A stretch of 64,000 bases of DNA from an uncultured bacterium (GTDB lineage: Bacteria > Patescibacteriota > Minisyncoccia > Phycocordibacterales > GWA1-40-21): contig CAWJAN010000005.1 in NCBI GenBank assembly GCA_963840885.1, forward strand, positions 12,887 through 76,886, read 5' to 3'. Below are positions 1,572-41,200 of this stretch, piece by piece; position 1 is the stretch's first letter, and every line of letters starts with the position of its first letter. The notes under the pieces were generated by a model. That model made no database searches and was not told where the DNA came from. It worked only from the letters and a program-made list of their open reading frames with translations. Made by a program: the position numbers and the translations under genes.

Positions 1572-2789
1572 ATGACAATACAAGATTTACTTCAAGAAAC
1601 TACATCGGCGCTTCTTTCGAACAAGGTGAGGACGGGCCTTACGATGCTTGGAATTGTCATAGGTATCGCTTCGGTTATTGCGATGCTTGCTGTCGGAAAC
1701 GGCGCGACGCAATCCATACAACAGCAAATACAATCTATCGGCTCTAATCTTGTCATAGTAAGTCCTGGAGCGCAGAAAAGCTTCAGCCAGGTGCGTACAA
1801 GCAGGGGAACGGCAAATACCCTTACAATGGATGATTCTGCTGCAATAGCTTCAGAAATACCAGATGCGGAAGCGGTAGCTCCAGCAGTAACGACACAAAA
1901 ACAAATCGTTTCTTCAGTATCAAATTCTAATACGCAAATAATCGGAACTGTTCCTATGTATACTCAGGTTAGAAACGTAAACCTTTCGGAAGGAACTTTC
2001 TTTACGGATGCTCAAGTCACATCCTTGGCTCGCGTTGCCATTATCGGCTCAACTACGGCGGCAGATCTTTATCCCAATGCGGATCCTGTGGGACAGATAC
2101 TCAGGATAAACGGAAACATATTTACTGTGATAGGCGTGGTTGCCGCAACTGGCGGAAATTCCGCAAACGCGAGTGATGATGTGGTTTATATTCCTATCAC
2201 CGTAGCTCAGCAATTTTTGACCGGCAATAAATACGTATCTTCGATAAACATAGAAGCCAATAGCCCTAATGCGGTCACCAATGTGCAAAACGAAGTTACA
2301 GCCCTTCTTCTTGCGCGTCATAATATAAGCGACCCGACAAAAGCGGATTTCAGCACGCTTAACCAATCGGATATTTTATCTACAGCATCGTCAGTCACTT
2401 CTACGATGACATATCTTCTGGCGGCGATTGCCGGCATATCTCTTCTTGTCGGAGGAATCGGCATCATGAACATGATGCTTACGACAGTTACCGAAAGGAC
2501 AAGAGAAATCGGCCTAAGAAAAGCTATCGGAGCAAAAGAAAAAGATATAAGAATGCAATTTTTATTTGAATCGATGATCCTTACGGTTTTGGGAGGAATC
2601 ATAGGAATCATTCTGGGTATGCTTATTTCCTATGTGCTGACGCTTACCGGCCTCTTGTCCGCTCAAGTATCGTTATTCTCGGTCATATTGTCATTCAGCG
2701 TCTCCGCAATCATAGGAATAGTGTTCGGATATTATCCGGCAGCGAGAGCATCGAGCCTCAATCCCATTGAAGCTCTCAGGTACGAATAA
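1572..2789 (+). CDS. ABC transporter permease (MacB/FtsX-type)
   Basis: N-terminal TM, a large periplasmic domain, and a C-terminal FtsX-like 3-TM bundle with REIGLRKAIGAKEKDI. Confidence 0.8.
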   Translation: MTIQDLLQETTSALLSNKVRTGLTMLGIVIGIASVIAMLAVGNGATQSIQQQIQSIGSNLVIVSPGAQKSFSQVRTSRGTANTLTMDDSAAIASEIPDAEAVAPAVTTQKQIVSSVSNSNTQIIGTVPMYTQVRNVNLSEGTFFTDAQVTSLARVAIIGSTTAADLYPNADPVGQILRINGNIFTVIGVVAATGGNSANASDDVVYIPITVAQQFLTGNKYVSSINIEANSPNAVTNVQNEVTALLLARHNISDPTKADFSTLNQSDILSTASSVTSTMTYLLAAIAGISLLVGGIGIMNMMLTTVTERTREIGLRKAIGAKEKDIRMQFLFESMILTVLGGIIGIILGMLISYVLTLTGLLSAQVSLFSVILSFSVSAIIGIVFGYYPAARASSLNPIEALRYE

Positions 2790-16571: not shown

Positions 16572-17330
16572 ATGTCAGAATACTATAAGCCGAATAGGGG
16601 AGCAGCGTGGAATTACGGCGGAAAGAACTGGAGATTGAGCCGTTCAAAAATAGACCTCTTCTTAGAATGTCCTCATTGTTTTTATCTGGATAATAAGCTC
16701 GGCGTCAAACGGGTGCCAGGATTTCCTTTCAATCTCAATTCCGCTGTAGACCATCTGTTGAAAAAAGAATTCGATTTTCACAGGGCGAAAGGAACCGGAC
16801 ATCCTCTTATGAAGAAGTACTGCTTGGATCTGATACCGTTCAAGAATGAAAAGATGGACGAATGGAGAGATTCACTCAGAAAAGGGGTCCAGTATTTTGA
16901 TACGAAAAACGGATTCACCGTATCTGGCGGAGTCGACGATATATGGGTAGATAAAAATGGTGATTTGACCGTCGTGGACTACAAAGCTACTTCTAAAGAC
17001 AAGGATATAGTTTCTCTGGATGAAAGCTGGCAGGATGGCTATAAAAGGCAGATGGAGGTATATCAATGGCTTCTCAGGAAAAACGGCTTCAAAGTTTCCG
17101 ACAGGGGATATTTTGTTTACTGCAACGGCAAAACCGACAAAGAAGCTTTTGACGCCAAACTCGAATTTGACGTAAATCTGGTTCCATATGACGGAAACGA
17201 TTCCTGGATTGAAAAAACGCTGGATGATATAAAAAAATGCCTGGAAGGCGGCACCTTGCCGGCTTCCAGCGAGAATTGCGATTACTGCTCATATTGCAAC
17301 TCAAGAAATGAAGCCGAAAAAAATAAATGA
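16572..17330 (+). CDS. PD-(D/E)XK nuclease, Cas4/RecB-like, with a Cys cluster (standalone)
   Basis: GGVDDIWVDKNGDLTVVDYK (D...D-x-K) motif, QMEVY (QxxxY) motif, N-terminal CPHC and C-terminal CDYCSYC. Confidence 0.55.
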   Translation: MSEYYKPNRGAAWNYGGKNWRLSRSKIDLFLECPHCFYLDNKLGVKRVPGFPFNLNSAVDHLLKKEFDFHRAKGTGHPLMKKYCLDLIPFKNEKMDEWRDSLRKGVQYFDTKNGFTVSGGVDDIWVDKNGDLTVVDYKATSKDKDIVSLDESWQDGYKRQMEVYQWLLRKNGFKVSDRGYFVYCNGKTDKEAFDAKLEFDVNLVPYDGNDSWIEKTLDDIKKCLEGGTLPASSENCDYCSYCNSRNEAEKNK

Positions 17331-18106
17331 AAACAGTAAAAATAATTTTTATAGCGCTTGCGGCATTATCGTTCGCACAAAATTCTTTTGCGGCTGATGC
17401 CAAGATAAATGCCGGAGTTTTGCCGAGCATCTGGTATTCCACCACCACTCCTTCCATCGATGAAAATATTGAAATATACGGGGGCATCCAAAACCATTCG
17501 GATTTGACGCTTTCTATTGAAGCTGTTTTTTATGTGGATGGAATGCCAAATTCAAAAATGATATTCATTTCCAATCCAAAAACGCTGATAGAAATATCAA
17601 GCCCTTGGACCGGTATATACGGCAATCATTCGATTCAGATAATATTGGACCGGATTTCAAGCGGCACTTCAACGGAAATGGCTACTAGTTCGCTAACTGC
17701 ATATGAAAGCGACAAAAACACTATAAATGTGTCGAATAATGTCACATTAGGATATATCGAAAATAGCGCCGTGGCTATAGCGGCAAATATGATAAGTTCT
17801 ATAGATAATTCCGCAAATAATCTGGCTGATCAGATAGAGACGCTCAAAAAGCCGGTTTCTGAAAATTCCGGCGCCGCTTATTCCGAAAATTCTCCGGAAT
17901 CGTCAGGTACTTCAGAAAATATTCAAATACCTGGAACCAGAAAGGTAACGCCAGCTTCCGTATTGTCGGCTGTCACTAATAGCAATATTTTCAAAACGGC
18001 ATACAATTATTTTATAGATTTTTTTAGCCTTATAATAAGGAACTGGGTGGTAAGCCTGGCCATACTTCTTTTTCTAATGTTTATTTTTAAATTCATGACA
18101 GGCTGA
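17327..18106 (+). CDS. Hypothetical secreted, membrane-anchored protein
   Basis: Signal peptide and a C-terminal TM segment. The start codon overlaps the upstream stop (ATGA). Confidence 0.45.
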   Translation: MKTVKIIFIALAALSFAQNSFAADAKINAGVLPSIWYSTTTPSIDENIEIYGGIQNHSDLTLSIEAVFYVDGMPNSKMIFISNPKTLIEISSPWTGIYGNHSIQIILDRISSGTSTEMATSSLTAYESDKNTINVSNNVTLGYIENSAVAIAANMISSIDNSANNLADQIETLKKPVSENSGAAYSENSPESSGTSENIQIPGTRKVTPASVLSAVTNSNIFKTAYNYFIDFFSLIIRNWVVSLAILLFLMFIFKFMTG

Positions 18107-18110
18107 TGCT

Positions 18111-18374
18111 ATGATTAAGAAAAAATATATAATTATACTTTTAGCTATTTTTCTCGTTCTTTCGGCTTTTGCGGCGTACTATATATATTATCTGAACATG
18201 GCCCACAGTACGTTCGAAAACTATTATGCTTTTCGTGGTTGCACAACCTTGGTTGAAAAAACCGATACTTATGGAATCTGTAATACAGATTCCGGACAAA
18301 CAATAAAAATAGTTAAATTCCAAAATGCATGGTATCTGGATGGCGACCTGCCATGCAGCTTTTTGTGTTTCTAG
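18111..18374 (+). CDS. Small Cys-containing membrane/secreted protein
   Basis: N-terminal TM segment and 4 Cys residues. Confidence 0.35.
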   Translation: MIKKKYIIILLAIFLVLSAFAAYYIYYLNMAHSTFENYYAFRGCTTLVEKTDTYGICNTDSGQTIKIVKFQNAWYLDGDLPCSFLCF

Positions 18375-18448
18375 TGGGCGATACAGGGTTCGAACCTGTG
18401 ACCTTGCGAATGTGAATCGCACGCTCTAACCAACTGAGCTAATCGCCC
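18375..18448 (-). tRNA. tRNA-Val (anticodon CAC)
   Basis: Manual fold of the reverse complement: GGGCGAT acceptor, GCTC/GAGC D-stem, TGCGA-TTCACAT-TCGCA anticodon arm, GTTCGAAC T-loop and discriminator A. Confidence 0.85.
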
Positions 18449-18485
18449 CGAATATTTTTTTGTAAATTTGCAAGCGCACCAAACT

Positions 18486-18509
18486 AGCCCAAACAGCTAA
18501 TCGCCCTAC
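18486..18509 (-). pseudogene. Remnant of the tRNA-Val 5' half (GGGCGATTAGCTG...)
   Basis: A 12-nt exact match to the tRNA-Val 5' end plus partial anticodon-arm similarity; no T-arm is present. Confidence 0.35.
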
Positions 18510-18593
18510 TCAAAAATTTATATCATGAAAAAAACTTTAATACTATTTTGATTTTTATCATATTATATAATATACTTTGCGGGTTATTATTTT

Positions 18594-18666
18594 GGGCCGC
18601 TAGCTCATTTGGTAGAGCGCATCCATGGCATGGATGAGGCGACCGGTTCGATCCCGGTGCGGTCCA
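18594..18666 (+). tRNA. tRNA-Ala (anticodon GGC)
   Basis: Manual fold with G3:U70, a CATCC-ATGGCAT-GGATG anticodon arm and a GGTTCGATCC T-arm. Confidence 0.85.
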
Positions 18667-18684
18667 CTAGGAGCGGATAATAAA

Positions 18685-18755
18685 GGGCCTATAGTATAGT
18701 GGTAGCACGCGTCATTCGCATTGACGAGACCCGGGTTCGACTCCCGGTAGGTCCA
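18685..18755 (+). tRNA. tRNA-Ala (anticodon CGC)
   Basis: Manual fold with G3:U70, a CGTCA-TTCGCAT-TGACG anticodon arm and a GGGTTCGACTCCCGG T-arm. Confidence 0.8.
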
Positions 18756-18798
18756 CATAAGAATAAAATGAAAAGCGGTTTTCATTTTATTCTTATGT
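18756..18798. repeat. Perfect 19-bp inverted repeat (hairpin) directly after tRNA-Ala
   Basis: CATAAGAATAAAATGAAAA-gcggt-TTTTCATTTTATTCTTATG. Confidence 0.55.
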
Positions 18799-18904
18799 GG
18801 ACGGCGTAGGTATATTTTGCACAGCAGTACAAAATACCGAGCCAGGGTCGTGAAAATTTTCGAGTGACAGCAAGAAAATTATTCCTGACCACAAGTTGAA
18901 TATT

Positions 18905-18976
18905 CGGAGCGTGGTGTAACGGTAACATATACGATTCGGGTTCGTATGACTCCGGGTTCAAATCCCGGCGCTCCGA
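18905..18976 (+). tRNA. tRNA-Pro (anticodon CGG)
   Basis: Manual fold with C1:G72, a TACGA-TTCGGGT-TCGTA anticodon arm and a GGGTTCAAATCCCGG T-arm. Confidence 0.85.
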
Positions 18977-19062
18977 CAATTAAATTTTTATTGACACCTC
19001 AAATCAAATAACATAAAGTTATTTGAAAGAGTTCTTAATTGAAATTTCAAAGGAGGTGCATT

Positions 19063-19272
19063 ATGTCTTCAAAAAAGAAAACTGCGCCTGCTTTTTTGCA
19101 GGATACGTGGATAAAAAATGAGCAGAGAGATGCAAAATTCGGCGATACTTTCCGGCCTCTATTGCTTCTTGGCGTAGCCACTATGTGTCCTTATTGCAAT
19201 ATGGTCATAAGCAATGAATATCTTCTTGACGGGCATGATTGCCCCGAGTGCAAGAAAAGGATCAAAGATTAA
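19063..19272 (+). CDS. Tiny zinc-ribbon protein (CxxC...CPxC), paralog 1
   Basis: SD AAAGGAGG 7 nt upstream. Contains CPYCNMVISNEYLLDGHDCPEC. Confidence 0.5.
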   Translation: MSSKKKTAPAFLQDTWIKNEQRDAKFGDTFRPLLLLGVATMCPYCNMVISNEYLLDGHDCPECKKRIKD

Positions 19273-19297
19273 TTATCTGTGGTCCTTTTTTGTTTGT

Positions 19298-19326
19298 TTG
19301 ACATGATATCTTATATAATTTAATAT
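19298..19326 (+). promoter_or_regulatory. Sigma70-like promoter TTGACA-N17-TAATAT for zinc-ribbon paralog 2
   Basis: Hexamers were read directly from the sequence. Confidence 0.4.
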
Positions 19327-19360
19327 AAAAGCTAGGATTATTCTGAAAAGGAGGCGCGCT

Positions 19361-19561
19361 ATGGTTTTTGAGTTTACTCAACCGGAGCCGCCACAACCAA
19401 CTGGCGGACCGGACAAATATATAACCGAAGAAGACAAAAAGTTTTGCCTAGGCAATCTATCTATCTTGATAGATGAGAAAAGGGCAGAGCGTTGCAGGGG
19501 ATGCAACCGAATAACAAGCAATGAGTATATGAATGCGTTTCATCATTGTCCGGATTGCTGA
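19361..19561 (+). CDS. Tiny zinc-ribbon protein, paralog 2
   Basis: SD AAAGGAGG upstream. CRGCNRITSNEYMNAFHHCPDC shares a C..CN..SNEY....HCP.C pattern with paralog 1. Confidence 0.5.
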   Translation: MVFEFTQPEPPQPTGGPDKYITEEDKKFCLGNLSILIDEKRAERCRGCNRITSNEYMNAFHHCPDC

Positions 19562-19651
19562 GTTGGTTATAAAAACAAGAGCCGGATTAAACCGGCTCTT
19601 TCCATTTGTTTCTTGTAAAAAAGATATGGTATAATTATTTTTAGAAAACAT

Positions 19652-21229
19652 ATGAGAAGCATTCTATATCACACTAAGCATTTCATAAAAAACAATAAGT
19701 GGTGGTCGGCTTTGATAGCCATCGTCCTTCTTATAGTAATCTATTTCGTTTTCGTTAAAAAACCTGCAAGCACCATAGGAAGCACCGTTACCGTAGAAAG
19801 CAGGAATATAACAGAAGAGGTGAGTGCGACCGGAAACGTCAAGCCGCTCTCCGATATAAGCATGGCTTTTGAAACCGGGGGCAAAGTTTCCGACATCGCC
19901 GTTTCAATAGGAGACAAAGTATCGGCCGGGCAATATCTGGCTTCGGTATCTAATTCTGACCTTTCCGCCGCAGTAGACCAGGCGAAAGCGAGCTTGAGTG
20001 CGGCAGAAGCCGACCTTGCAATACTGAAAAACGGCTCAACCCCTCAGCAAATAGCCGTGAGCCAATCACAAGAACAAGAAGCTCTCGGAAATTTTAATCA
20101 GGCAAAAAGTGCTCTTATAAACTCGATACAAGACGCATACACAAAATCGGATGATGCCGTAAGGAACAAGGCTGATTCCATGTTCGATAATCCAAGAAGC
20201 TCGACTCCGAAGCTAAGCTTTGACACGACGAATTCACAGCTGTCTATAAATGTAGATTTGGAGAGGGAAAATATCGAGAATACCCTTTTAGACTGGAACA
20301 ATTCCTCAGTAAATCTTACTCCTGATTCGGATTTGCAGTCTGCTGCGGATATCGCAAATCAAAACCTAGACTTGATCAAAAATTTCCTGAACGACGTGAA
20401 TCTTTCGCTTAACAGCGCCGTCATAAGTTCTTCCGTCACTGAAGACGTCATAAGCAGCTGGCAGGCAAGCATAGCAACGGCAAGGACAAACATAGCGCTT
20501 GCAATAAGCAATATGTCTTCGGCTTCAACCCAATACAATTCCATGGAATCACTTTTGAAAGTCGCGGAAGATCAGCTTACTCTCACAAAAGCTCCCGCCA
20601 CAGACAACCAGATAAAAGCTCAGCAAGCGTTAGTGGACCAGGCAGCGGCTAATGTTGAAAATGCAAAAGCAAAACTTGAAAAAACAATCATACGTTCTCC
20701 TATAGACGGAACCATTTCCAGAGTCGATACCGATGTCGGGGAAACGGTACAAAGCGGGGTAAATGTGATTTCTGTTATTTCTTACGGCGAATACGAAGTG
20801 GAGGCTTTTATTCCGGAAGCGGATATAGCTAAAGTAAAGATAGGCGATGTGGCTACTACAACGCTTGATGCTTATGGTTCGGATACTTTTTTCCAGATGA
20901 CAGTAATAAAAATAGATCCGGCGGAAACAGTCATAGAAGGCGTCCCTACATATAAGGTGACTTTGAAATTCGCATCAGATGACAGCAGGATAAAATCTGG
21001 TATGACAGCAAACCTCGACATACTTACAGGGCAAAAATATGGCGTGCTTGCGGTGCCAGCAAGATCAGTTTATTCTGTCGATACCCAAAAATACGCGCAG
21101 CTGGTGGATTCTGAAAATAAAATCGCTGATGTTCCGGTTCAAACTGGTATGCGCGGAGTCGACGGATACATAGAAATCATTTCCGGTTTAAAGGAGGGAG
21201 ATACAATTGTAGGATCTCCGAATATCTAA
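19652..21229 (+). CDS. Efflux-transporter periplasmic adaptor subunit (HlyD/MacA family)
   Basis: N-terminal TM, a long coiled-coil, and a C-terminal beta-barrel region (IIRSPIDGTISRV...LAVPARSVY). Confidence 0.8.
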   Translation: MRSILYHTKHFIKNNKWWSALIAIVLLIVIYFVFVKKPASTIGSTVTVESRNITEEVSATGNVKPLSDISMAFETGGKVSDIAVSIGDKVSAGQYLASVSNSDLSAAVDQAKASLSAAEADLAILKNGSTPQQIAVSQSQEQEALGNFNQAKSALINSIQDAYTKSDDAVRNKADSMFDNPRSSTPKLSFDTTNSQLSINVDLERENIENTLLDWNNSSVNLTPDSDLQSAADIANQNLDLIKNFLNDVNLSLNSAVISSSVTEDVISSWQASIATARTNIALAISNMSSASTQYNSMESLLKVAEDQLTLTKAPATDNQIKAQQALVDQAAANVENAKAKLEKTIIRSPIDGTISRVDTDVGETVQSGVNVISVISYGEYEVEAFIPEADIAKVKIGDVATTTLDAYGSDTFFQMTVIKIDPAETVIEGVPTYKVTLKFASDDSRIKSGMTANLDILTGQKYGVLAVPARSVYSVDTQKYAQLVDSENKIADVPVQTGMRGVDGYIEIISGLKEGDTIVGSPNI

Positions 21230-21233
21230 AGCA

Positions 21234-21953
21234 GTGGCTCTCATAGAGGTAAAAAATCTTTCCAAAGTCTACGATAATGAGGGCGTAAAAACCGACGCTC
21301 TTCACGATATAAACTTGAATGTAGAAAAAGGCGAGTTTCTTGCGATTATGGGCCCGTCCGGTTCCGGCAAATCGACATTGCTGCAGATACTCGGCCTTTT
21401 GGACAATCATACGCATGGCACATATCATTTCGCCGACAAAAACGTAAAGCTTTACGATGAAAATGAAATCGCAAAGATAAGGAATCAAAAAATGGGATTT
21501 GTTTTTCAGGCATTCAACCTGCTTCCGCATCTGACACTCATAGAAAACGTTAAGATGCCTCTTTTGTATTCTGATAAGCCGGAACATGAATGGGATAAGC
21601 GCGCGGAAGACGCTCTTATATCAGTAGGCCTCGGACACAGGCTCACTCATCAGGCATTCCAGCTATCAGGAGGAGAAAAACAGCGCGTAGCTATAGCTCG
21701 CGCCCTGGTTAACGATCCTGAAGTTATTTTTGCCGATGAGCCTACCGGAAACCTGGATTCAAAATCAGGACAAGCCGTCATAGAGATAATAGAAAAGCTC
21801 AATTCTGAGATGGGACATACGATAATTCTGATAACTCACGAAACGTATACCGCAGAATATGCCCAAAGGATAGTTAAGCTTCTTGACGGACAGATAGAAA
21901 GCGACCATAAGGTGAAAAACAGAAAAACTAGCCGTGATCATTTTATAAAATAA
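21234..21953 (+). CDS. ABC transporter ATP-binding protein (MacB-type), paralog of 847-1563
   Basis: [24 protein letters not shown] and [11 protein letters not shown] motifs; about 55% identical to the first ATPase by eye. Confidence 0.85.
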
Positions 21954-23191
21954 TGAAATTAAGACATAGCATCAAAACAGCGACCGAAGGGCTAATGACG
22001 CACAAATCTCGTTCCGCTCTTACTATTATAGGAATCGTAATCGGCATAACCTCGATAATCCTTGTCATGTCTCTAGGCCAAGGAGCGCAAAATCTGATTC
22101 TTGGAGAAGTAAACGGGCTTGGAGCAACGACTATAGCCGTGATACCTGGAAAAATTTCAAGCGGACCGTCCAGCTTCGCAACAACGCTTTCCGATTCTCT
22201 GAAGCAAAAAGATCTTACCGCTATAGAAACAAAAACAAATGTCCCGTATGCGACCCGCGTCATGCCCGTAATGATAAGCGGCGCAAATGCCGTATATGGA
22301 AATAAGGTTTATCAAGTCGGATTATTCGGCGGAACGCAGCTGATGCAACAGATTTTCAATATTACCGTTGGCAGGGGAGATTTTTTTACCGATGACGATG
22401 TTTTAAGCAATCAGGCCGTTGCGATAATAGGAAATGACGTGAAAGACCATTTATTCGACGGTGAAGATCCTCTTGGTCAGAAAATCAGGATAAACAATAC
22501 GACTTTCAAGATTATCGGAGTATTGCCTGCAAAAGGGCAGTCCGGTTTCGTAAATTTTGACAGCGGAGTTATTATGCCGTACACGACCGCCCAGCAATAC
22601 GTACTCGGCGTAAAATATTTCAGCCGTATTATTGTTGAGGCCGACTCGCAAGATCATATACAGGCTACAGCAGAAGATATAACCAATACATTGAGAAATT
22701 CTCATAATATTACCGATCCTGCAAATGATGATTTCACCGTAGAGACTCAGGCGGATATAGCTTCAACGCTAAATACCGTAACGACAGCCCTGACTGCATT
22801 CCTTGCGGCAGTTGCAGCCATATCCCTTATAGTGGGCGGAATAGGGATCATGAATATAATGCTCGTATCGGTTACAGAAAGAACGAGGGAAATCGGCCTA
22901 AGAAAAGCTCTAGGGGCAACAAACCATGACATACTGGTACAATTTCTTCTTGAAGCTGTAATGCTTACCGGCTCCGGAGGAATAATTGGGATTATTTTGG
23001 GAGGTTCATTATCTTTCATAATATCTCTCATACTTAAAAACGCACTCGGCCTGAATTGGCAGTTTGTTTTTCCTTGGAGCGCAGCCGTCCTCGGTATTGT
23101 TGTTGCAAGCCTTGTAGGACTTGTTTTCGGAATCTATCCGGCACGGCAGGCATCAAGAAGAAGCCCTATGGAAGCCCTGAGATACGAATAA
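21953..23191 (+). CDS. ABC transporter permease (MacB/FtsX-type)
   Basis: Same architecture as 1572-2789, with REIGLRKALGATNHDI. Confidence 0.8.
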   Translation: MKLRHSIKTATEGLMTHKSRSALTIIGIVIGITSIILVMSLGQGAQNLILGEVNGLGATTIAVIPGKISSGPSSFATTLSDSLKQKDLTAIETKTNVPYATRVMPVMISGANAVYGNKVYQVGLFGGTQLMQQIFNITVGRGDFFTDDDVLSNQAVAIIGNDVKDHLFDGEDPLGQKIRINNTTFKIIGVLPAKGQSGFVNFDSGVIMPYTTAQQYVLGVKYFSRIIVEADSQDHIQATAEDITNTLRNSHNITDPANDDFTVETQADIASTLNTVTTALTAFLAAVAAISLIVGGIGIMNIMLVSVTERTREIGLRKALGATNHDILVQFLLEAVMLTGSGGIIGIILGGSLSFIISLILKNALGLNWQFVFPWSAAVLGIVVASLVGLVFGIYPARQASRRSPMEALRYE

Positions 23192-23233
23192 TAAGCTTTA
23201 CACTTTTAAAATTTAATTTATACTTTAAAGACT

Positions 23234-23464
23234 ATGGGATTCTTCAAAAATTTAATGCTTAAGCAAGCGCTCAAAACGCAAGCGAAAGATATGCCGCCTG
23301 AACAAAAAGATAAGCTCATGGCCGCATTCGAAAAAGATCCGGCATTCTTCGAAAATATAGAAAAACAGATAAAAATGCGAATGAAGCAGGGGAAAGGGCA
23401 GTTCGAAGCTTCAATGGAAGTAATGAAAGAAAATCAGGATAAGCTAAGAAAATTGATGCAATAG
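23234..23464 (+). CDS. Small hypothetical charged/helical protein (76 aa)
   Basis: ORF followed by a strong terminator. Confidence 0.4.
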   Translation: MGFFKNLMLKQALKTQAKDMPPEQKDKLMAAFEKDPAFFENIEKQIKMRMKQGKGQFEASMEVMKENQDKLRKLMQ

Positions 23465-23480
23465 ATATATAAATTTAGAC

Positions 23481-23520
23481 AAAAAAATAAGGCCGTCTCT
23501 TTTGGAGACGGCCTTTTTGA
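23481..23520. terminator. Bidirectional rho-independent terminator
   Basis: AAGGCCGTCTC-tttt-GGAGACGGCCTT stem flanked by A and T tracts, lying between convergent genes. Confidence 0.6.
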
Positions 23521-23535
23521 ATCTTGAAACTACTA

Positions 23536-24546
23536 CTAAGGCCTTATTACGAGGCCGGCGTTCACGGAGAATTCCGCAAACGTCGAGGTGTCGACTGTGA
23601 AGGGAATACTGGTCACGCTCCCGAGCTTATACAGCTCTCCTGAAAACGTGAACCCGAATCCGTCCGTGATGGGAAAAATTGATCCCAACTCGAACACTAT
23701 CGAGCTTGCCGTATCCGTGTGAGGGAACGGTGTCCCACCGATCATCAACTTATTGTCGATACCAGCGAACTTCACGCCGAGTCCCGCGTAAGGAAGCCAA
23801 TGTTCATCCTTAACCGGATAAACCTTGGCCATAAGCTCCCATGAATCAGTGATTCCCACAGTTCCGATTGATGCCCCGTAAACTTTCTTTTCGAGGGACG
23901 TATTTCCGGAATCATGAGAGACCATCAGGCCGACCTTGCCGGCAATGATTCCTTCAACCGAGAACTTCTGGCCTACATTGCTCGAGCTAGTCGTGGAAAA
24001 TCCTTGCGGATCTTCCGACTGACTTCCAAAGCTTGCTGCCACTTGTTCCCAACTGAACTGAAACCATCTGTCGCTGAACTTCCGATCAACCGATTTCTCT
24101 TTCACCAATTTTGTCGGTGAAGGAGTCGGGCTTGCCGTCGGTGAAACTTTCGCTTCGACGACAATAATCGTTCGCGATTCCTTGAGGACCTCGTTGTTCC
24201 GAGTCGTCTTCGTGTACACGATGGTGAACATTCCGATCTTGGACGTATCGATCATGTTGATCGCTACGAGCTTGATCGGTCCGTCAACATCGCGCGGTCC
24301 GTGAGCAATCGCGCCTGGATCTACATACACTGAACCTTTCATCACAGTCACCGGATTCTGCCCGATGATCTCGATGTAAAATGGAAACAGCTTTTTCTTG
24401 TGCTTCACGATCTTCTTGTGAGTGCTTTTGGCACTCGCTGAAGTCGTGTCTTTGTAGGGCGGCGCTTCATAAGCATTCGCCGCCCTCGCAATCGAAAAGC
24501 TGAACCAGAACAGCATCATGGTGATGAGAAACGTAAGCTTCTTCAT
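23536..24546 (-). CDS. Secreted protein on a GC-rich (compositionally foreign) segment. It has an N-terminal Ig-like module homologous to the repeats of the giant protein, a P/T/S linker, and a C-terminal beta-strand-rich domain
   Basis: Signal peptide MKKLTFLITMMLFWFSFSIARA. The module FYIEIIGQNPVTVMKGSVYVDPGAIAHG...TIVYTKT aligns to the APVITILGSNP..Y.DAGA consensus. About 55-58% GC against a ~39% background. Confidence 0.6.
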   Translation of the reverse strand: MKKLTFLITMMLFWFSFSIARAANAYEAPPYKDTTSASAKSTHKKIVKHKKKLFPFYIEIIGQNPVTVMKGSVYVDPGAIAHGPRDVDGPIKLVAINMIDTSKIGMFTIVYTKTTRNNEVLKESRTIIVVEAKVSPTASPTPSPTKLVKEKSVDRKFSDRWFQFSWEQVAASFGSQSEDPQGFSTTSSSNVGQKFSVEGIIAGKVGLMVSHDSGNTSLEKKVYGASIGTVGITDSWELMAKVYPVKDEHWLPYAGLGVKFAGIDNKLMIGGTPFPHTDTASSIVFELGSIFPITDGFGFTFSGELYKLGSVTSIPFTVDTSTFAEFSVNAGLVIRP

Positions 24547-25121: not shown

Positions 25122-28100
25122 ATGACTACAAACAAAAGAAACATCATCAAAATGCTCAGCAACGTATTCATCGTTGTCCTTTTTGCTGTTTCTTTTTCTT
25201 CCGTAGCATATGCTGATTACTCAACCACGACCGTCTTAAACACAAGCGGGTCATTTGTAGTTCCGCAAGGAGTTACTGGGTTGACCTTTAGCGTTGTTGG
25301 CGGAGGAGGAGGAGGCGGCGGAGGAGCATTCACGTTCGCAGGCGGAGGAGGAGGATCGGCTTCTGCCATTTTAAATACAAATATCTCTGTAACACCAGGA
25401 CAGACGATTTCTTACACTGTAGGAAACGGCGGTAATGGCGGATACGGAGGCTCAATGCAATTTGCCGGAGGCAATGGAACAAATGGAGGTTCAACTTCAT
25501 TCGGTTCCACGACAGTATCCGGAGGATTCGGAGGCCAAGGTGCAGCTTATGGAAATCCATCAAGCGGCATCGGCGGACTTGCGGGAGGCATTGGAGGATC
25601 CAACGGAACAAACGGAGACACATTCTTTGGCCAGAGAGTCAAAGGTGGAAACGGGGGTTCTAACGCACTCGGAACGGCGGGAGTCGGAGGTTCCGGTAAT
25701 TCTTCATCGTATGTTCTTGCAACCGCAGGAACGAACGGTGCGGGAGGGGGAGGAGCAAGCGGATGGCAGTTCAACTCAAATGGCACAGCTGATGCTGGCG
25801 CCACTGGAGGAAACGGCTCAATCGTTGTTTCTTACTATGCAGATCTTACTGCCCCTGTAATTACAATTTTAGGATCAAATCCTGAAACAATAACAGTTGG
25901 CACTCCATACGCTGATGCCGGAGCTATAGCTCTCGACAATATCGATGGAACGACAACAGTCGCAACTGTTTCAAACAATGTTGATATAAACACTGTTGGA
26001 ACATACGAAGTTGTTTACTCTGCTACAGATACAGCAGGAAACAATTCAATGGCAACAAGGACGGTTAATGTTATCGCTGCTCCTGACACCATTGCACCTG
26101 TTATTACTATCCTGGGTTCTAATCCGGCAACCACAACCGTGGGATCAACATACGTTGATGCCGGAGCTACAGCCTTCGATAATGTCGACGGTACAACTAC
26201 TGTAAACATCGCCTCAAACGATGTAGACACAAATGCAACAGGAACATATTCTGTTGTTTATACTTCGACAGATTCTTCAGGAAACACGGCCACAGCAACA
26301 AGAGTTGTTATTGTGGGCGTAGCATCTCCAGTAGATACTACTGCTCCAACAGCACCTCTTATTTCAACGACAACGGCCGCAACCGGAACAATAACCCTCT
26401 CTGAGGATATTGCCTGGTTTGATTCAACTGATTTGGAATCCGGTGTAGCTTATTATCTCTATCTTTGGGATAACTCAAGCGCAACCGTGCTTTCAACTAC
26501 GACCGCGGGAGTCTCGACGACAACTTCGACAACTACCAACTTAACGGCATTTGGAACATATTGGTTCCATGTCGCAGCTGTTGATAATGCCGGAAACGTG
26601 TCCTTGACGACAACTTACGGTCCATTTCTGATTTCTGATTCAAATGTCCTTTATGTAAATTCAACCATCGGAGGAACACTTTACTCATTGTTTTCGCCAT
26701 CTCTTGCCGAAGCTGCAATAGCTTCTACGACAGGCGCAACAACAATAGTAAATTCGAGCATTTCCGTATGGTGGGACATAAACGATTCAAACGTAATAAA
26801 TACAACAGTAAACGATGTGGCGATGAACTTGGTTGATGCGACAAATTCAACACTTATCAATGACGATATCGGAAACTGCCAGATCATAAATTCTGACGTT
26901 GAAAATTATTACTTGAGAAATTGCTACGTGGCATTCTCTGTGCTTGATCCATCCACACTCTACTCGTTCACAAATTCAACGAGCACGAACTCACAGATCT
27001 ATGCTTCAAATATCGACAGTTCAACAATCGATCATTCATACGTGGCGACTTCGACTATCGGCAATTCGAACATTTCATTCTCGACAACGACTGATTCGAC
27101 CGTCGCTTCATCAACGATAAGCAACGGTTCGATTATTTCTTCTTCAACAGTGGAAATAAGCACTGTCGATAATTCAAATGTATCGTCTTCAACAGTAAGC
27201 ACGAGTACCGTCACCGATTCTTCAATAGTAAATTCTACATTTACGAACTCGGCTTCGGACAATTCAACAACGACTGATTCGGCTGTTGATACATCATCGC
27301 TTACAAATTCAACCGTAAGCTCAAGCTCCGCTACAAATTCGACGATAACCGATTCAACGCTTACAAACAGCACCTCGACTGATTCGACGATAACATCTTC
27401 GAATCTCGACACAGTTGTCGTTGCAAGCTCGACGATAGCAAGCTCGACGATAGCAGATGCAACAATTACCGATGCGATAATAATCGACAATACTATCTAC
27501 AGCGGCACGATCACATATAACGGAACAACAACCGTCATATCTACATCGACTCCGCTCGGAAGCCTTATCGAATATGCGCCGGTAGCAGCATTCTCTGTCG
27601 CTACAAGCAATCTTCAGATGAACATCACGGACAATACCGTCGACCTTAACAGCGGAACGGTATTTCCTGACAGCTGGACATATATGTGGGATTTCGGAGA
27701 CGGAACCTCGACAACAGTCCTTGCATCAACAACCGGACAAAACATATCTTATACGTACGCAACAAGCGGAACATATACGGTATCTTTGACCGTTACTGAC
27801 GGATACGGAAAAGTTTCCACGACTTCAAGCCAGGTAACCATAGTAAATAATCCTGATACGATTGCTCCAGTAATTACGATTCTCGGATCAAATCCGGACA
27901 GCGTAGTTGCTGGAACAACTTACACCGATGCAGGCGCAACAGCATTCGACAATGTAGACGGAACCACAACAGTGGCAACCATCTCTAACAATGTTGATAC
28001 TTTGACTCTCGGAACATACCAGGTTGTTTACTCGGCTACTGACACGGCAGGAAACAATGCGACAGCTACAAGAACTGTAAATGTAGTTTCTGCTCCGGAC

Positions 28101-30854
28101 ACGATTCCTCCGGTAATTACAATAAACGGATCGAGCACTGTAAACGTATTCCAAAACTCTACATATACGGATCAGGGCGCGACAGCATTCGACAATGTTG
28201 ATGGAACGACAAGTGTAAGCATCTCATTTAACGATGTAGATACTTCGGCTACCGGAACATATTCCGTCGTATATTCTTCAACCGATTCTTCAAGCAATAC
28301 GGCATATGCTACGAGAACCGTAGATGTCATCGGAGCGCCGGGCGACGTAGTTCCTCCAGTCATCACCATCACAAACGGAACGCCGACAACGGTTTTGCAG
28401 AATTCAACATATGTTGATGACGGCGCAACCGCATTCGATAACGTTGATGGTACGACTTCAGTTGCAACCATCTTCAATGATGTCGATACTGCAGCTACCG
28501 GAACATATTCAGTAGTCTATTCGGCAACGGATACTGCGGGAAATAATTCGCAGGCGACGAGGACGGTGGATGTTATTGCCGGACCAACCGACAATACGCC
28601 TCCAGTCATCACCATCACAAACGGAACGCCGACAACGGTTTTGCAGAATTCAACATATGTTGATGACGGCGCAACCGCATTCGATAACGTTGATGGTACG
28701 ACTTCAGTTGCAACCATCTTCAATGATGTCGATACTGCAGCTACCGGAACATATTCAGTAGTCTATTCGGCAACGGATACTGCGGGAAATAATTCGCAGG
28801 CGACGAGGAATGTAAATGTCGTCGAAGCTACAAGCTCAGACAATATTCCGCCTGTAATCACAATAATAAACGGAACACCTACAACTATCACAGTTGGTTC
28901 AGTTTATACGGATGCAGGAGCTACGGCATTCGACAATATTGATGGAACTACGACAGTAACGACAATCTCAAACAATGTTGATTCAAATACTGTCGGAACA
29001 TATCAGGTTGTCTACTCAGCCACAGACGTAGCTGGAAATAACGCAACGGCGACAAGAGACGTAAATGTCATAAGCGGAGCTTCCGACAATACGCCTCCAG
29101 TCATCACCATCACAAACGGAACGCCGACAACGGTTTTGCAGAATTCAACATATGTTGATGACGGCGCAACCGCATTCGATAACGTTGATGGTACGACTTC
29201 AGTTGCAACCATCTTCAATGATGTCGATACTGCAGCTACCGGAACATATTCAGTAGTCTATTCGGCAACGGATACTGCGGGAAATAATTCGCAGGCGACG
29301 AGGATAGTAAACGTAATCGATCAGGACACTGTTGCCCCAGTCATAACGATTCTTGGCAATAATCCGGAAACCATTACTCAGTACATGACATATACAGATG
29401 CAGGCGCAGTAGCATTCGATAATGTCGACGGTTCAACGACTGTAACGATAATCTCGAACAATGTTGATACTTCGGCAACTGGAACATATTCTGTCGTCTA
29501 CTCAGCAACCGATATGTCAGGCAATGCCGCAACGGCAACCAGAACAGTTAATGTTACAGCGGACACACAGGCACCTGTCATAACGATTCTCGGAAATAAT
29601 CCTGAGAATGTGTTGCTAAACTCAGTCTATACTGATGCAGGCGCAACGGCCTTCGACAATGTCGACGGCACGACAACAGTCAATGCCACAGGCACGGTAG
29701 ATACCGCAGCGACTGGCACATACCAAATCGTCTATTCATCGACTGATTCTTCAAGCAATACGGCATATGCTACGAGAACTGTAGATGTCATTGCAGCTTC
29801 AAGCTCGGCAAAACAGATTCTTTCCTTCGACTTCAACGGCCTATCACCTGCAGCAACGGGAACGATCAACCAGATTTCCGGAACTATAAATTTGACTGTT
29901 CCTTCAGGAACAAATGTTACAAATCTTGTTCCGACAATCTCATTGTCCGCAAGCGCAAGCGTCAATCCTGGATCAGGAGCGGCTAATGACTTCACAAATC
30001 CTGTCGTATATACGGTTACCGCCCAAGACCTTTCAACATCGACATACACGGTCACGGTAACAGTTGCGACAACATCGACATCGACGCCAGATACTACTGC
30101 TCCGGCAATAACGATACTCGGGTCAAATCCAGTAACGCTTACTGTCGGCTCGTCATACACTGATGCAGGCGCAACAGCATTCGACAATGTTGATGGCGTA
30201 ACAACTGTAACGATAGCTTCAAACGATGTTAATACTTCGATTGCAGGTTTGTATCATGTCGTATATACATCGACTGATTCTTCAAGCAACACTTCGTTTG
30301 CAACAAGAACAGTTAATATCATTTCGACAAGTTCAAACAGTGGGGGACAAGTAACTATATTCGGCGGAGTCCCTGGACCATACGTTCCACCGACAACTCC
30401 GACATATACCGAACCAACACCTTCAACACCAGTTGTAACCACACCGGAAACACCTGCAGCACCTACGACACCGCAAACGCCGGCAAACAATACGCCTTCC
30501 GCAGGAACGAATAACAGCATCTCCGGAACGGAAAGCTCGTCTGGCAATCAGGCAAGCGGCGCATCAAATGCTGGAAATTCCATAGATTCTGCACTTGGCG
30601 GAATAATAGGAACGACTGGTGAATCGCAGGGCGGAGGATCAACATCTGCGGAAACAGCTACGACCGCAGCATCAACGACCGCAAACTCGTCAAACAAGAG
30701 TTTGGTGGCAACAGTACTTGAAGGTTTGTCGAGCGCAAAAGCTCTCTGGACAATACTCATACTTTTGCTCATCGCAGTAGCTTCATACATAACTTTCAGA
30801 CACTATAGCGAAAACGAAAGCCAAAACCAAAGCCAAAATAAGAAAACTAAATAA
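25122..30854 (+). CDS. Giant (1910 aa) cell-surface protein. Architecture is signal/TM, Gly-rich region, tandem Ig-like (DUF5011/HYR-like) modules, PKD domain, S/T/N-rich beta-solenoid-like region, Pro/Thr stalk and a C-terminal TM anchor
   Basis: A single uninterrupted ORF. The motifs were read directly from the translation (see finding). Confidence 0.85.
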   Translation: MTTNKRNIIKMLSNVFIVVLFAVSFSSVAYADYSTTTVLNTSGSFVVPQGVTGLTFSVVGGGGGGGGGAFTFAGGGGGSASAILNTNISVTPGQTISYTVGNGGNGGYGGSMQFAGGNGTNGGSTSFGSTTVSGGFGGQGAAYGNPSSGIGGLAGGIGGSNGTNGDTFFGQRVKGGNGGSNALGTAGVGGSGNSSSYVLATAGTNGAGGGGASGWQFNSNGTADAGATGGNGSIVVSYYADLTAPVITILGSNPETITVGTPYADAGAIALDNIDGTTTVATVSNNVDINTVGTYEVVYSATDTAGNNSMATRTVNVIAAPDTIAPVITILGSNPATTTVGSTYVDAGATAFDNVDGTTTVNIASNDVDTNATGTYSVVYTSTDSSGNTATATRVVIVGVASPVDTTAPTAPLISTTTAATGTITLSEDIAWFDSTDLESGVAYYLYLWDNSSATVLSTTTAGVSTTTSTTTNLTAFGTYWFHVAAVDNAGNVSLTTTYGPFLISDSNVLYVNSTIGGTLYSLFSPSLAEAAIASTTGATTIVNSSISVWWDINDSNVINTTVNDVAMNLVDATNSTLINDDIGNCQIINSDVENYYLRNCYVAFSVLDPSTLYSFTNSTSTNSQIYASNIDSSTIDHSYVATSTIGNSNISFSTTTDSTVASSTISNGSIISSSTVEISTVDNSNVSSSTVSTSTVTDSSIVNSTFTNSASDNSTTTDSAVDTSSLTNSTVSSSSATNSTITDSTLTNSTSTDSTITSSNLDTVVVASSTIASSTIADATITDAIIIDNTIYSGTITYNGTTTVISTSTPLGSLIEYAPVAAFSVATSNLQMNITDNTVDLNSGTVFPDSWTYMWDFGDGTSTTVLASTTGQNISYTYATSGTYTVSLTVTDGYGKVSTTSSQVTIVNNPDTIAPVITILGSNPDSVVAGTTYTDAGATAFDNVDGTTTVATISNNVDTLTLGTYQVVYSATDTAGNNATATRTVNVVSAPDTIPPVITINGSSTVNVFQNSTYTDQGATAFDNVDGTTSVSISFNDVDTSATGTYSVVYSSTDSSSNTAYATRTVDVIGAPGDVVPPVITITNGTPTTVLQNSTYVDDGATAFDNVDGTTSVATIFNDVDTAATGTYSVVYSATDTAGNNSQATRTVDVIAGPTDNTPPVITITNGTPTTVLQNSTYVDDGATAFDNVDGTTSVATIFNDVDTAATGTYSVVYSATDTAGNNSQATRNVNVVEATSSDNIPPVITIINGTPTTITVGSVYTDAGATAFDNIDGTTTVTTISNNVDSNTVGTYQVVYSATDVAGNNATATRDVNVISGASDNTPPVITITNGTPTTVLQNSTYVDDGATAFDNVDGTTSVATIFNDVDTAATGTYSVVYSATDTAGNNSQATRIVNVIDQDTVAPVITILGNNPETITQYMTYTDAGAVAFDNVDGSTTVTIISNNVDTSATGTYSVVYSATDMSGNAATATRTVNVTADTQAPVITILGNNPENVLLNSVYTDAGATAFDNVDGTTTVNATGTVDTAATGTYQIVYSSTDSSSNTAYATRTVDVIAASSSAKQILSFDFNGLSPAATGTINQISGTINLTVPSGTNVTNLVPTISLSASASVNPGSGAANDFTNPVVYTVTAQDLSTSTYTVTVTVATTSTSTPDTTAPAITILGSNPVTLTVGSSYTDAGATAFDNVDGVTTVTIASNDVNTSIAGLYHVVYTSTDSSSNTSFATRTVNIISTSSNSGGQVTIFGGVPGPYVPPTTPTYTEPTPSTPVVTTPETPAAPTTPQTPANNTPSAGTNNSISGTESSSGNQASGASNAGNSIDSALGGIIGTTGESQGGGSTSAETATTAASTTANSSNKSLVATVLEGLSSAKALWTILILLLIAVASYITFRHYSENESQNQSQNKKTK
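28353..28562 (+). repeat. Intragenic direct repeat, copy A (~210 bp, identical to B and C)
   Basis: Begins CCTCCAGTCATCACCATCACAAACGG and ends GCAGGCGACGAGG. Confidence 0.8.
28599..28808 (+). repeat. Intragenic direct repeat, copy B
   Basis: Same sequence as copy A, offset by 246 nt (82 codons). Confidence 0.8.
29094..29303 (+). repeat. Intragenic direct repeat, copy C
   Basis: Same sequence, 495 nt downstream of copy B. Three identical antisense ORFs in the ORF track confirm the identity. Confidence 0.8.
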
Positions 30855-39403: not shown

Positions 39404-41200
39404 ATGAAATCGGACGAAATACGCGAAAGATACCTTAAATTCTTTGAAAAAAGAGGGCATAAAATAATCCCTTCGGCATCGCTTGTACCAGAAAATGATC
39501 CCTCATCTCTTTTTATAAGCGCAGGAATGCAGCCAATGGTTCCTTATCTGCTTGGTGCAAAACATCCGGCTGGCGTAAGGATAGTGGATGTCCAGAAATG
39601 CGTTAGAACAGGCGATATTGATGATGTGGGTGATAACCGCCACTGCACCTTCTTTGAAATGCTTGGAAACTGGTCGCTCGGCGATTACTTTAAAAAAGAA
39701 TCGATCGACTGGAGTTTGGAATTTATTACAAATAAAAAAGAAGGTTTGGGATTGGATCCGAAAAGGCTTTATGTCACGGTTTTCAAGGGCGAAGACGGAA
39801 TTCCGCGCGATGAAGAATCGATAAATATCTGGAAGGATACTTTTAAAAAACCTGGGATTGACGCGGAAGTGGCAGGTAAAGATGAATATATAAAAGACGA
39901 TATAAGAATTATTCCGCTTGGAAAAGATGATAATTTTTGGATTGCCGGAAATACCGGTCCATGCGGAGGAGACACTGAATTTTTTTACGATGTCCTGGGA
40001 AATGGAAAAGTTGAGGGTGATTTTCATGAATTGGTAAAATCCGGAAGAATCATTGAAATTTGGAATAATGTTTTCATGGAATTCAATAAAACTGCAGACG
40101 GCAAATATGAAAAGCTGGCAAAACCGAATGTGGATACTGGAATGGGACTAGAGAGAACGGCTGTTGTAATGCAAGGCAAGGATAATGTTTTTGAAACCGA
40201 TCTTTTCGAGCCTTTGATGTCTTACATTCATTCAAATTCTGAAAAATACGACGAAAGACTTGCAAGAATTGTTGCAGACCATATACGTTCCACAGTCTTC
40301 ATTATTTCTGACGGAGTAATGCCTGCAAATACAGAAGCGGGATACGTGCTCAGAAGAGTTTTGAGAAGAGCCATAAGATCGATAGATAATTTGAAACTTA
40401 AGGAAGAATCTATTTTTGATTTAGCCAAGATAGTTATAAAAAATTATTCCCATGCTTATCCGAGCCTGAAAACAAAAGAAAGCGAAATATTAGATGCAAT
40501 CAAAAAAGAAGATGCAAAATTCAGAGAAACTCTGGATAAGGGCCTAAAGGAATTCGAAAAAGGCACCAGTGCATTCGACTTGTTCCAGACCTACGGCTTT
40601 CCGCTTGAGATGACGCTTGAGCTGGCTATGGAAGAGGGAAGGCATATAGATGTGGATGAGTTTAACCGTAAGATGAAAGAACATCAGGAAATTTCTCGTG
40701 CAGGAAGCGAACAGAAATTCAAAGGCGGGCTTGCGAGCCACGGCGAGATGGAGACGAAATATCATACCGCGACCCATATGATGCTCGCGGCGCTTCAGAA
40801 AGTCCTAGGCGCGCCGATAGTCCAGAAGGGAAGCAATATCACTGCGGAAAGAATGCGCTTTGATTTCAACTGGCCGCAAAAGCTGACCAAAGAACAGATA
40901 AAAGGGGTGGAAGATATGGTAAATGAAAAAATCGCCGAGAAACTGCCGGTAGAAATGGTTGAGCTGCCGAAAGCCGAAGCGCAAAAAATCGCCACTACGC
41001 TCGCATTCGACCTTTCAAGCTACGGCGATATCGTAAAAGTTTATAAAATCGGCTATGTGCCGGAAATTGACAAAGCCTTCAGTATAGAATTCTGCGGCGG
41101 CCCGCATGTAAAAAATACAGGCGAGCTCGGGCATTTCAAAATCGCAAAAGAAGAGGCTGTAAGCGCAGGAGTAAGGAGAATAAAAGCTGTGCTTGAATAA
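39404..41200 (+). CDS. alaS: Alanine--tRNA ligase, short form (598 aa; catalytic, tRNA-recognition and editing domains present, C-Ala domain absent)
   Basis: N-terminal core FISAGMQPMVPY, editing-domain HxxxH (HTATHMM) and CGGPHV motifs. Confidence 0.85.
   Translation: MKSDEIRERYLKFFEKRGHKIIPSASLVPENDPSSLFISAGMQPMVPYLLGAKHPAGVRIVDVQKCVRTGDIDDVGDNRHCTFFEMLGNWSLGDYFKKESIDWSLEFITNKKEGLGLDPKRLYVTVFKGEDGIPRDEESINIWKDTFKKPGIDAEVAGKDEYIKDDIRIIPLGKDDNFWIAGNTGPCGGDTEFFYDVLGNGKVEGDFHELVKSGRIIEIWNNVFMEFNKTADGKYEKLAKPNVDTGMGLERTAVVMQGKDNVFETDLFEPLMSYIHSNSEKYDERLARIVADHIRSTVFIISDGVMPANTEAGYVLRRVLRRAIRSIDNLKLKEESIFDLAKIVIKNYSHAYPSLKTKESEILDAIKKEDAKFRETLDKGLKEFEKGTSAFDLFQTYGFPLEMTLELAMEEGRHIDVDEFNRKMKEHQEISRAGSEQKFKGGLASHGEMETKYHTATHMMLAALQKVLGAPIVQKGSNITAERMRFDFNWPQKLTKEQIKGVEDMVNEKIAEKLPVEMVELPKAEAQKIATTLAFDLSSYGDIVKVYKIGYVPEIDKAFSIEFCGGPHVKNTGELGHFKIAKEEAVSAGVRRIKAVLE

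Follow-up and report, generated by a model that had tools for sequence, protein, structure and literature searches.

The one-domain zinc-finger mu-proteins of Haloferax volcanii (Nagel et al., 2019; PMC6562870) are the closest known kind of protein to the two small gene products described here (ORF1 and ORF2). Of 16 deletion mutants in that set, 12 had condition-specific phenotypes, which indicates that such mini-proteins can matter. Like the mu-proteins, ORF1 and ORF2 are stand-alone proteins of fewer than 70 aa, encoded by single genes and made up of about one four-cysteine module with no enzymatic domain (PMC6562870). The mu-proteins differ, however, in being archaeal and in being defined by the motif C(P)XCG, whereas the present proteins combine CxxC and CPxC motifs without the glycine and have D-K-W-I-x-E-E as a conserved motif in the N-terminal part; no relationship in sequence between the two sets was detected. 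As the mu-proteins form a descriptive class, the likeness would seem to be one of kind and not of descent.

The most frequent weak match by sequence and by structure, although not a significant one, was to the N-terminal ribbon of AccD (PDB profile E about 0.4; Foldseek probability 0.44–0.54; rmsd 1.9–2.0 Å over 34 columns with 26–29% identity). The AccD ribbon binds nucleic acid. It differs from the present proteins in its spacing (x15 instead of x14) and in forming the N terminus of an enzyme subunit of approximately 300 aa, and we regard the resemblance as a lead only. Generic ribbon families such as DZR (PF12773), Zn_ribbon_3 (PF13248) and Zf_2nd_IFT121 (PF23145) share with ORF1 and ORF2 the arrangement of two knuckles some 14 residues apart around a beta-hairpin, yet ORF1, ORF2 and their orthologues score below the cut-offs of these families (at best 16.8 bits against 22.6, and 16.5 against 25). 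A further point of comparison is the neighbouring operon, which has precisely the components of a MacAB-type tripartite efflux system, namely an HlyD-family adaptor, an ABC ATPase and a permease with MacB_PCD and FtsX domains. To our knowledge, no described MacAB-type system has a small zinc-ribbon partner, and the small genes here differ from components of such systems in that a terminator lies between them and the operon and in that they persist where the operon is missing.

Gene order and expression signals

ORF1 (69 aa; 19063–19272) and ORF2 (66 aa; 19361–19561) lie on the plus strand of the 64,000-nucleotide stretch of DNA that was analysed (the window), at the coordinates given by the first-pass annotation. 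The upstream neighbours of ORF1 are four tRNA genes, Val(−), Ala, Ala and Pro(+), at 18374–18977, which were all that Rfam found over 18300–19750. Downstream on the same strand, at 19652–23191, Pfam confirmed the expected efflux operon (HlyD-like, PF13437/PF16576; ABC ATPase, PF00005, at 21234–21953; MacB-type permease). No anomaly of GC content or skew was seen around the small genes. The first-pass annotation had placed the beginning of the feature at 19039, which proves to be an in-frame TTG upstream of the ORF1 ATG; we place the start at the ATG (19063), since a Shine–Dalgarno sequence is present and the orthologue has the same start.

Each small gene is flanked by signals of its own. The Shine–Dalgarno sequence read from the DNA is AAAGGAGG in both cases, at 19049–19056 for ORF1 and at 19347–19354 for ORF2, with the ATG 6 nt further on. 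A consensus scan confirmed the promoter-like site TTGACA-N17-TAATAT proposed earlier for ORF2 (19298–19326) and added one for ORF1, TTGACA-N17-TAAAGT (18991–19019), that had gone unmentioned, although the scan as a whole gave 6 consensus matches, about equal to the 4.4 in shuffled sequence. A hairpin with a U-run at 19250–19293 overlaps the 3' end of ORF1 (−17.1 kcal/mol, z = −4.75), and a second terminator hairpin at 19577–19600 (−15.7 kcal/mol, z = −5.5), beginning after a gap of 15 nt from the ORF2 stop, stands between ORF2 and the HlyD gene, with the pump genes beyond. The perfect extended −10 element TGGTATAAT at 19627–19635, ahead of the HlyD gene and likewise read from the sequence, is assigned to the pump operon and not to the small genes.

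Many of these signals recur in two related lineages, one represented by the 3.6 kb metagenome contig L001, from JGI 3300036760, and the other by L006, to which L002 and L003 are near-identical. The window and L001 share 83% identity over the 88 nt that precede ORF1, with both hexamers, their spacing and most of the 5' untranslated region kept, in contrast to the saturated synonymous sites of the flanking genes; the AAGGAGG of the ORF1 Shine–Dalgarno sequence is also kept in L001. For ORF2, a TTGAC −35 element stands at the corresponding position in both L001 and L006, the orthologues have AGGAGG or GAGGAG as their Shine–Dalgarno sequences, and in L006 and L003 the counterpart of the pump's −10 element, TTGTTATAAT, follows the terminator. 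A hairpin with a U-run follows each small ORF in the window, L001 and L006, different in sequence and the same in position (the L001 equivalent of the ORF1 terminator has −14.8 kcal/mol, z = −4.7). Hairpins conserved in position, together with the promoter-like sites, support monocistronic units, and ORF1 and ORF2 each look like a transcription unit of their own, as the first-pass annotation had supposed. Judged by promoter strength as read from the consensus matches, the small proteins are probably well expressed. A shared operator at the conserved 5' untranslated word AAGAGTTCTTA was considered and dropped, as the word did not recur in the window beyond chance.

A rare family of small zinc-ribbon proteins

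ORF1 and ORF2 match each other by BLASTP with E = 1e-7 and 33% identity over 55 residues. The alignment spans ORF1 residues 9–63 and ORF2 residues 13–66, which is nearly the full length of both, and includes, beyond the ribbon, a D-x-W/Y-I motif, a glycine and a hydrophobic L-L stretch before the first cysteine knuckle; the statement that the two have different N termini was thus only partly right, while the proposal that they are paralogous was borne out. We consider it very probable that they are real paralogous zinc-ribbon genes. The ribbon reads C42-x2-C45-x14-C60-P-x-C63 in ORF1 and C45-x2-C48-x14-C63-P-D-C66 in ORF2, in which it ends exactly at the C terminus.

A word-indexed search of 5.8 billion proteins, made with two single-sequence queries and one alignment query, returned only the window's two proteins and the L001 pair, P0002 and P0004. 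When 1.84 billion cluster representatives were scanned with a HMMER profile (E ≤ 0.001), 13 matches were obtained. Nine of them, with E values between 3e-30 and 4e-4, are small proteins of full length: the window's own two; P0004 and P0006, which are of the ORF2 type; P0009, a protein of 99 aa with a Lys/Arg tail; and P0010, P0011, P0013 and P0014, a distant clade whose homology, by hhalign, extends over 59 columns (probability 98%, E = 9e-14). P0002 did not appear as a separate match in the profile scan, which is to be expected if P0001 stands for it in the same 50% cluster. It is the orthologue of ORF1 in L001 (68% identical), and those of ORF2 are P0004 in L001, P0006 in L002 and L003, and P0015 in L006, one residue different from P0006. 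Two further matches, P0005 and P0007, are long repeat proteins which met only profile positions 7–37 and 15–37, upstream of the ribbon, and were set aside as noise; P0008 and P0012 are membrane proteins with three ribbons each, which match DZR and have the spacing C-P-x-C-x4-S-x-D/E-F/Y-x6-C-P-x-C. No relative of ORF1 was found in the GTDB species-representative genomes, against which the HlyD-like protein gave one distant gammaproteobacterial match and nothing else; IMG/VR held no relative of either type, and when the window and all the loci were translated in six frames and scanned with an HMM, no additional paralogues came to light. The family is therefore very rare, with about nine true representative clusters among 1.84 billion, and it is unnamed. 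For all ten members, nothing in Pfam, NCBIfam, PHROGs or PADLOC rose above cut-off, in agreement with the earlier suggestion of an undescribed family, and the cut-offs of the curated zinc-ribbon families in Pfam and NCBIfam were reached by no match. The ribosomal zinc-ribbon models (L31, L32, L33, L36 and S14) gave no Pfam or NCBIfam match even at E up to 1, and the best result of a PDB profile search, a RING2 ribbon with E = 0.026, is not meaningful.

In the family alignment the C, C, P and C columns are invariant, and P, L, A and the fourth C are found in at least 90% of members. The family-wide signature can be written as C-x2(3)-C-x14-C-P-x-C with an upstream W/Y-I/L and hydrophobic stretch, lying no more than seven residues from the C terminus in all but P0009, with its basic tail. 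The form C-x2-C-x14-C-P-x-C occurs in ORF1, ORF2, P0002, P0006, P0010, P0011 and P0014; P0004 and P0013 have C-x3-C as the first knuckle, and in P0009 this knuckle is without its second cysteine. Of the longer signature described in the first-pass annotation, the cysteine framework is real, but the SNEY and H(D)CP elements are limited to this genome, the orthologues having SNNF or SKEN, and AKCP or KHCP, in their place. An anti-sigma role had also been suggested. A zinc-binding anti-sigma factor (ZAS) would have H-x3-C-x2-C and an adjacent, co-transcribed ECF sigma gene; no sigma-factor gene lies among the neighbours scanned (16572–24546), the histidine before the first knuckle is not conserved in the family, and this candidate was rejected.

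AF2 models built on the ten-sequence alignment are of medium confidence (pLDDT 70 for ORF1 and 72 for ORF2) and predict in both proteins a beta-hairpin between the knuckles (strands 39–41 and 48–50 in ORF1, 42–44 and 51–53 in ORF2), together with a pair of short helices and a disordered stretch of 10–20 residues at the N terminus. Both the cysteine pattern and the models thus give the two knuckles flanking a beta-hairpin that characterize a C4 zinc ribbon, and the pattern suggests that zinc is bound. Foldseek found nothing at E ≤ 0.001 in PDB or among the BFVD viral models, and no DNA-binding fold. The family proteins have no signal peptide or membrane segment (GRAVY −0.45 to −1.15, with no 19-residue window hydrophobic enough for a membrane helix). 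ORF1-type proteins are basic with Lys-rich ends (pI 8.4–10.0; 8.4 for ORF1 itself), the pI of P0009 is 10.5, and that of ORF2-type proteins is 5.2–7.7, with ORF2 acidic at 5.2; the acidic members of the ORF2 type fit poorly with a simple nucleic-acid-binding role.

The neighbouring pump and other explanations

The window, L001 and L006 share a common frame, in which the tRNA block is followed by the small genes, a gene for a 76-aa protein and a gene for a surface protein on the minus strand. Within this frame, the window has both small genes and the pump operon. L006, with L002 and L003, has the pump operon (55–74% identical to the window's) and an ORF2-type gene but no ORF1-type gene, in the order tRNA block, ORF2-type gene, pump, 76-aa gene and surface-protein gene, and with approximately 90 nt from tRNA-Pro to the ORF2-type start. 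In L001 the order is tRNA block, ORF1, ORF2, 76-aa gene and surface-protein gene, with just 156 nt between ORF2 and the 76-aa gene; the pump is missing at this locus, a statement that covers only the 3.6 kb contig and leaves room for a pump elsewhere in that genome. The 76-aa protein of the window is 88% identical to that of L001 against 80% with L006, and the surface protein 71% identical against 40% and 32% with L006 as the outside lineage. These identities make the window and L001 sisters, with L006 outside, from which it follows that the pump was most simply ancestral and was deleted in the L001 lineage, while both small genes were kept intact with their signals.

The five distant members of the family occur among quite other neighbours (HigB/MarR; cupin; sugar/glycosyl transferases; GroEL/LemA), and no pump genes lie near any of them. 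An accessory or regulator of the pump should show conserved co-occurrence across genomes, which was not found in this small sample. The functional link to the exporter drawn in the first-pass annotation finds no support: L001 has both genes and no operon, L006 has the operon and one gene, and the distant contexts are unrelated. Two observations had been named there as telling against the proposal. Absence of the ORFs from related genomes was not seen, as orthologues under purifying selection exist in two other lineages; absence of efflux genes was seen in part, a pump being present in the window, L006, L002 and L003 and missing at L001 and at the five distant loci. We conclude that the function of the small genes is probably independent of the pump, to judge from gene order, and the adjacency to the MacAB-like operon is best read as fortuitous, arising from how genes happen to be ordered in this lineage.

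The alternative that survives best makes the ORF2-type protein a cytoplasmic accessory or regulator dedicated to the MacAB-like pump, either as a DNA-binding repressor or activator of the operon or by binding the ABC ATPase, with ORF1 as a spare. Its appeal lies in the position of the ORF2-type gene directly upstream of the HlyD gene and on the same strand in two of the three close lineages (the window and L006/L002/L003), and in P0009, which has as neighbours a MarR regulator and a gene of 436 aa, cut and without an assigned kind. Against this, ORF2 of L001 keeps its promoter-like site, Shine–Dalgarno sequence and terminator with no pump at the locus, and its pN/pS in comparisons involving L001 (0.33–0.44) is no higher than that between the window and L006 (0.43). 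Between ORF2 and the pump genes lie a separate TGnTATAAT as well as a terminator, the five distant members have no pump nearby, and Foldseek gave no DNA-binding fold, so that we consider a dedicated pump regulator unlikely.

A second alternative is that a mobile element inserted at the tRNA cluster brought the genes as cargo or left them as remnants, such as a small zinc-ribbon regulator of phage type or an anti-defence protein. The four tRNA genes are immediately adjacent, gene content at the site differs among relatives, ORF2 evolves fast, and there is a weak match to phrog_23116 (E = 9e-4, over the ribbon only). On the other hand, no integrase, repeats or shift in composition were seen, IMG/VR and the BFVD models offered no relative and no significant viral match, respectively, and the genes are syntenic in three diverged lineages; a mobile origin is accordingly very unlikely.

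Two further explanations also start from the neighbouring operon, and both are highly improbable. The first, raised in the first-pass annotation, is that the proteins are exported substrates of the adaptor/ABC system; they would then be bacteriocin or RiPP precursors. They are small, rich in cysteine and adjacent to an exporter, and a GG at residues 15–16 is conserved in the ORF2 type, but this GG is missing in the ORF1 type and in the distant members, and neither a hydrophobic signal nor a leader sequence is present. Systems with double-glycine leaders have, besides the GG, a C39 exporter and/or modification enzymes, whereas the ABC ATPase here is a bare nucleotide-binding subunit of 239 aa in which Pfam matched no peptidase domain, and no peptide-modification family was found by Pfam in the neighbours scanned. 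Moreover, the proteins are conserved over their full length as a folded ribbon with no division into leader and core, and L001 keeps the genes without the exporter.

The second explanation is that ORF2 is an attenuation leader controlling the terminator before the pump operon, as the placing of that hairpin 15 nt past ORF2, with the pump genes next, might suggest. A length of 66 aa is great for a leader peptide, however, the sequence of which would be largely unconstrained, whereas purifying selection acts on ORF2, and other members of its family occur in unrelated settings; in addition, L001 has ORF2 and its terminator with no pump behind, and the pump has a −10 element of its own downstream of the terminator.

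The length, start and stop of the ORFs are conserved across the three lineages, pN/pS is 0.30 for ORF1 and 0.33–0.44 for ORF2 with synonymous sites saturated, and the identity of orthologues (40–68%) falls inside the range of the neighbouring genes (40–88%), all of which indicates that ORF1 and ORF2 are protein-coding genes under purifying selection. That these ORFs, very short and without database annotation as they are, might be no genes at all but chance likenesses of cysteine-containing frames is scarcely credible in the face of this conservation, which includes expression signals, and of nine true members in a scan of 1.84 billion proteins.

Duplication history and possible role

With the single-copy gene of L006, ORF1 gives a stronger match (E = 4e-11) than with the adjacent ORF2 (1e-7). 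Between the sisters, the window and L001, ORF1 shows 68% identity and ORF2 only 40%, whereas ORF2 is 53–55% identical to the outgroup L006, against the tree given by the neighbouring genes. These relationships are consistent with an ORF2-like ancestor that was duplicated in tandem, ORF1 afterwards coming under tighter constraint and ORF2 evolving faster in the lineages that have two copies. Alternatively, ORF1 may have been lost in the L006 lineage.

Our current working hypothesis is that ORF1 and ORF2 are separately transcribed genes whose products would be soluble cytoplasmic proteins of about 8 kDa, each with a partly disordered N-terminal part bearing a conserved P...D-K-W/Y-I-x-E-E, two short helices and a C-terminal C4 ribbon. 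Tandem duplication of the ORF2-like ancestor would have given rise to a basic, slowly evolving ORF1 and an acidic, fast-evolving ORF2, both acting independently of the neighbouring MacAB-like pump. Each protein would work by binding a macromolecular partner, with the ribbon serving as a rigid knob and the N-terminal motif as a second contact. As a single statement, that these are soluble, stand-alone, partner-binding zinc-ribbon mini-proteins, independent of the pump and duplicated, the hypothesis is one in which we have moderate confidence. For the basic ORF1 type and for P0009, with its Lys/Arg tail, the most likely partner would be nucleic acid or the machinery of transcription or translation; this suggestion, drawn from charge, Lys-rich tails, strong expression signals and the weak AccD-like resemblance, is a tentative one. 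It is tempting to go further and to speculate that in uncultivated bacteria with small genomes the proteins are abundant and either form part of the core gene-expression machinery (ribosome, RNA polymerase or RNA processing) or regulate it, with the role split between ORF1 and ORF2 after duplication, although we regard this extension as quite unlikely.

The family is a very rare and new one of a well-known kind of protein. Nothing in the finding points to a new kind of pump regulator or to an exported peptide, and adjacency to a MacAB-like operon is not a fit basis for annotating the small genes. If our reading is correct, ORF1 and ORF2 would add another small, lineage-restricted zinc-ribbon family to the uncharacterized mini-proteins of uncultivated bacteria, and would provide a tidy case of tandem duplication with unequal divergence; the finding would carry greater weight were the proteins shown to belong to the ribosome or to RNA polymerase in these organisms.

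Divergence of the zinc-ribbon genes

The ORF2 genes of the window (19361-19561), of the sister lineage represented by the metagenome contig L001 (1865-2068) and of the outgroup lineage L006 (721-927) were compared. Identity between the two sisters is 40%, whereas either of them shares 53-55% identity with the outgroup, in which an ORF2-type gene is found but no ORF1-type gene. That the sister ORF2 genes are less alike than either is to the outgroup suggests, from sequence comparison, that ORF2 evolves faster where its ORF1 paralogue co-occurs. A distant member of the zinc-ribbon family, P0009 (contig ENA ERZ27297709), is a protein of 99 aa with a strongly basic tail; the neighbours of its gene are, on one side, an oppositely oriented gene for a HigB toxin and, on the other, a MarR regulator gene followed by a cut gene of 436 aa.

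The tRNA block upstream of ORF1

Four tRNA genes (Val, Ala, Ala, Pro) form a block upstream of ORF1 in the window (18374-18977), and this block is also present in L001 (1015-1471) and L006 (152-628). Relative to the window and L006, the whole block is flipped as one unit in L001, and the genes flanking it there are unchanged in order and strand. Within the block of the window, an inverted repeat (18751-18802), whose 24-nt arms match perfectly and enclose a loop of 4 nt, begins inside tRNA-Ala(cgc) at its 3' end; possible readings of this element are a small insertion, a terminator or a signal for processing. In L006 (469-490 and 557-578), a second copy of the 5' half of tRNA-Pro precedes the intact gene by about 90 nt, and L003, a near-identical relative of L006, carries a tandem pair of tRNA-like 3' ends at positions 1-99.

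Pump genes and their downstream neighbour

Positions 280-3900 of L002, another near-identical relative of L006, are 92% identical to L006 980-4580, yet the alignment contains 15 gap openings over 3.9 kb, and the HlyD-like and ABC genes of L002 are fragmented into short ORFs. This fragmentation means either that the pump genes are decaying or that errors arose in sequencing. Downstream of the pump operon, a gene encoding a 76-aa protein (window 23234-23464) is the best conserved of the neighbourhood, with 80-88% identity across the three lineages and a pN/pS of 0.07-0.13; a Pfam scan of the protein gave no match. A second MacB-type permease gene of the window (1572-2789) is preceded by an ORF at 847-1563, and no zinc-ribbon family member was found in the window near this pair (847-2789).

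Other genes of the window

An ORF of 1910 aa (25122-30854) has a glycine-rich N-terminal part, a membrane anchor at its C-terminus and numerous Ig-like repeats that are nearly identical to one another; its smaller neighbour (23536-24546, minus strand) contains a Bact_surface_Ig-like domain. The alanyl-tRNA synthetase (39404-41200; 598 aa) and the aspartyl-tRNA synthetase (56223-57620; 465 aa) are both unusually short, which is consistent with an uncultivated bacterium of reduced genome.
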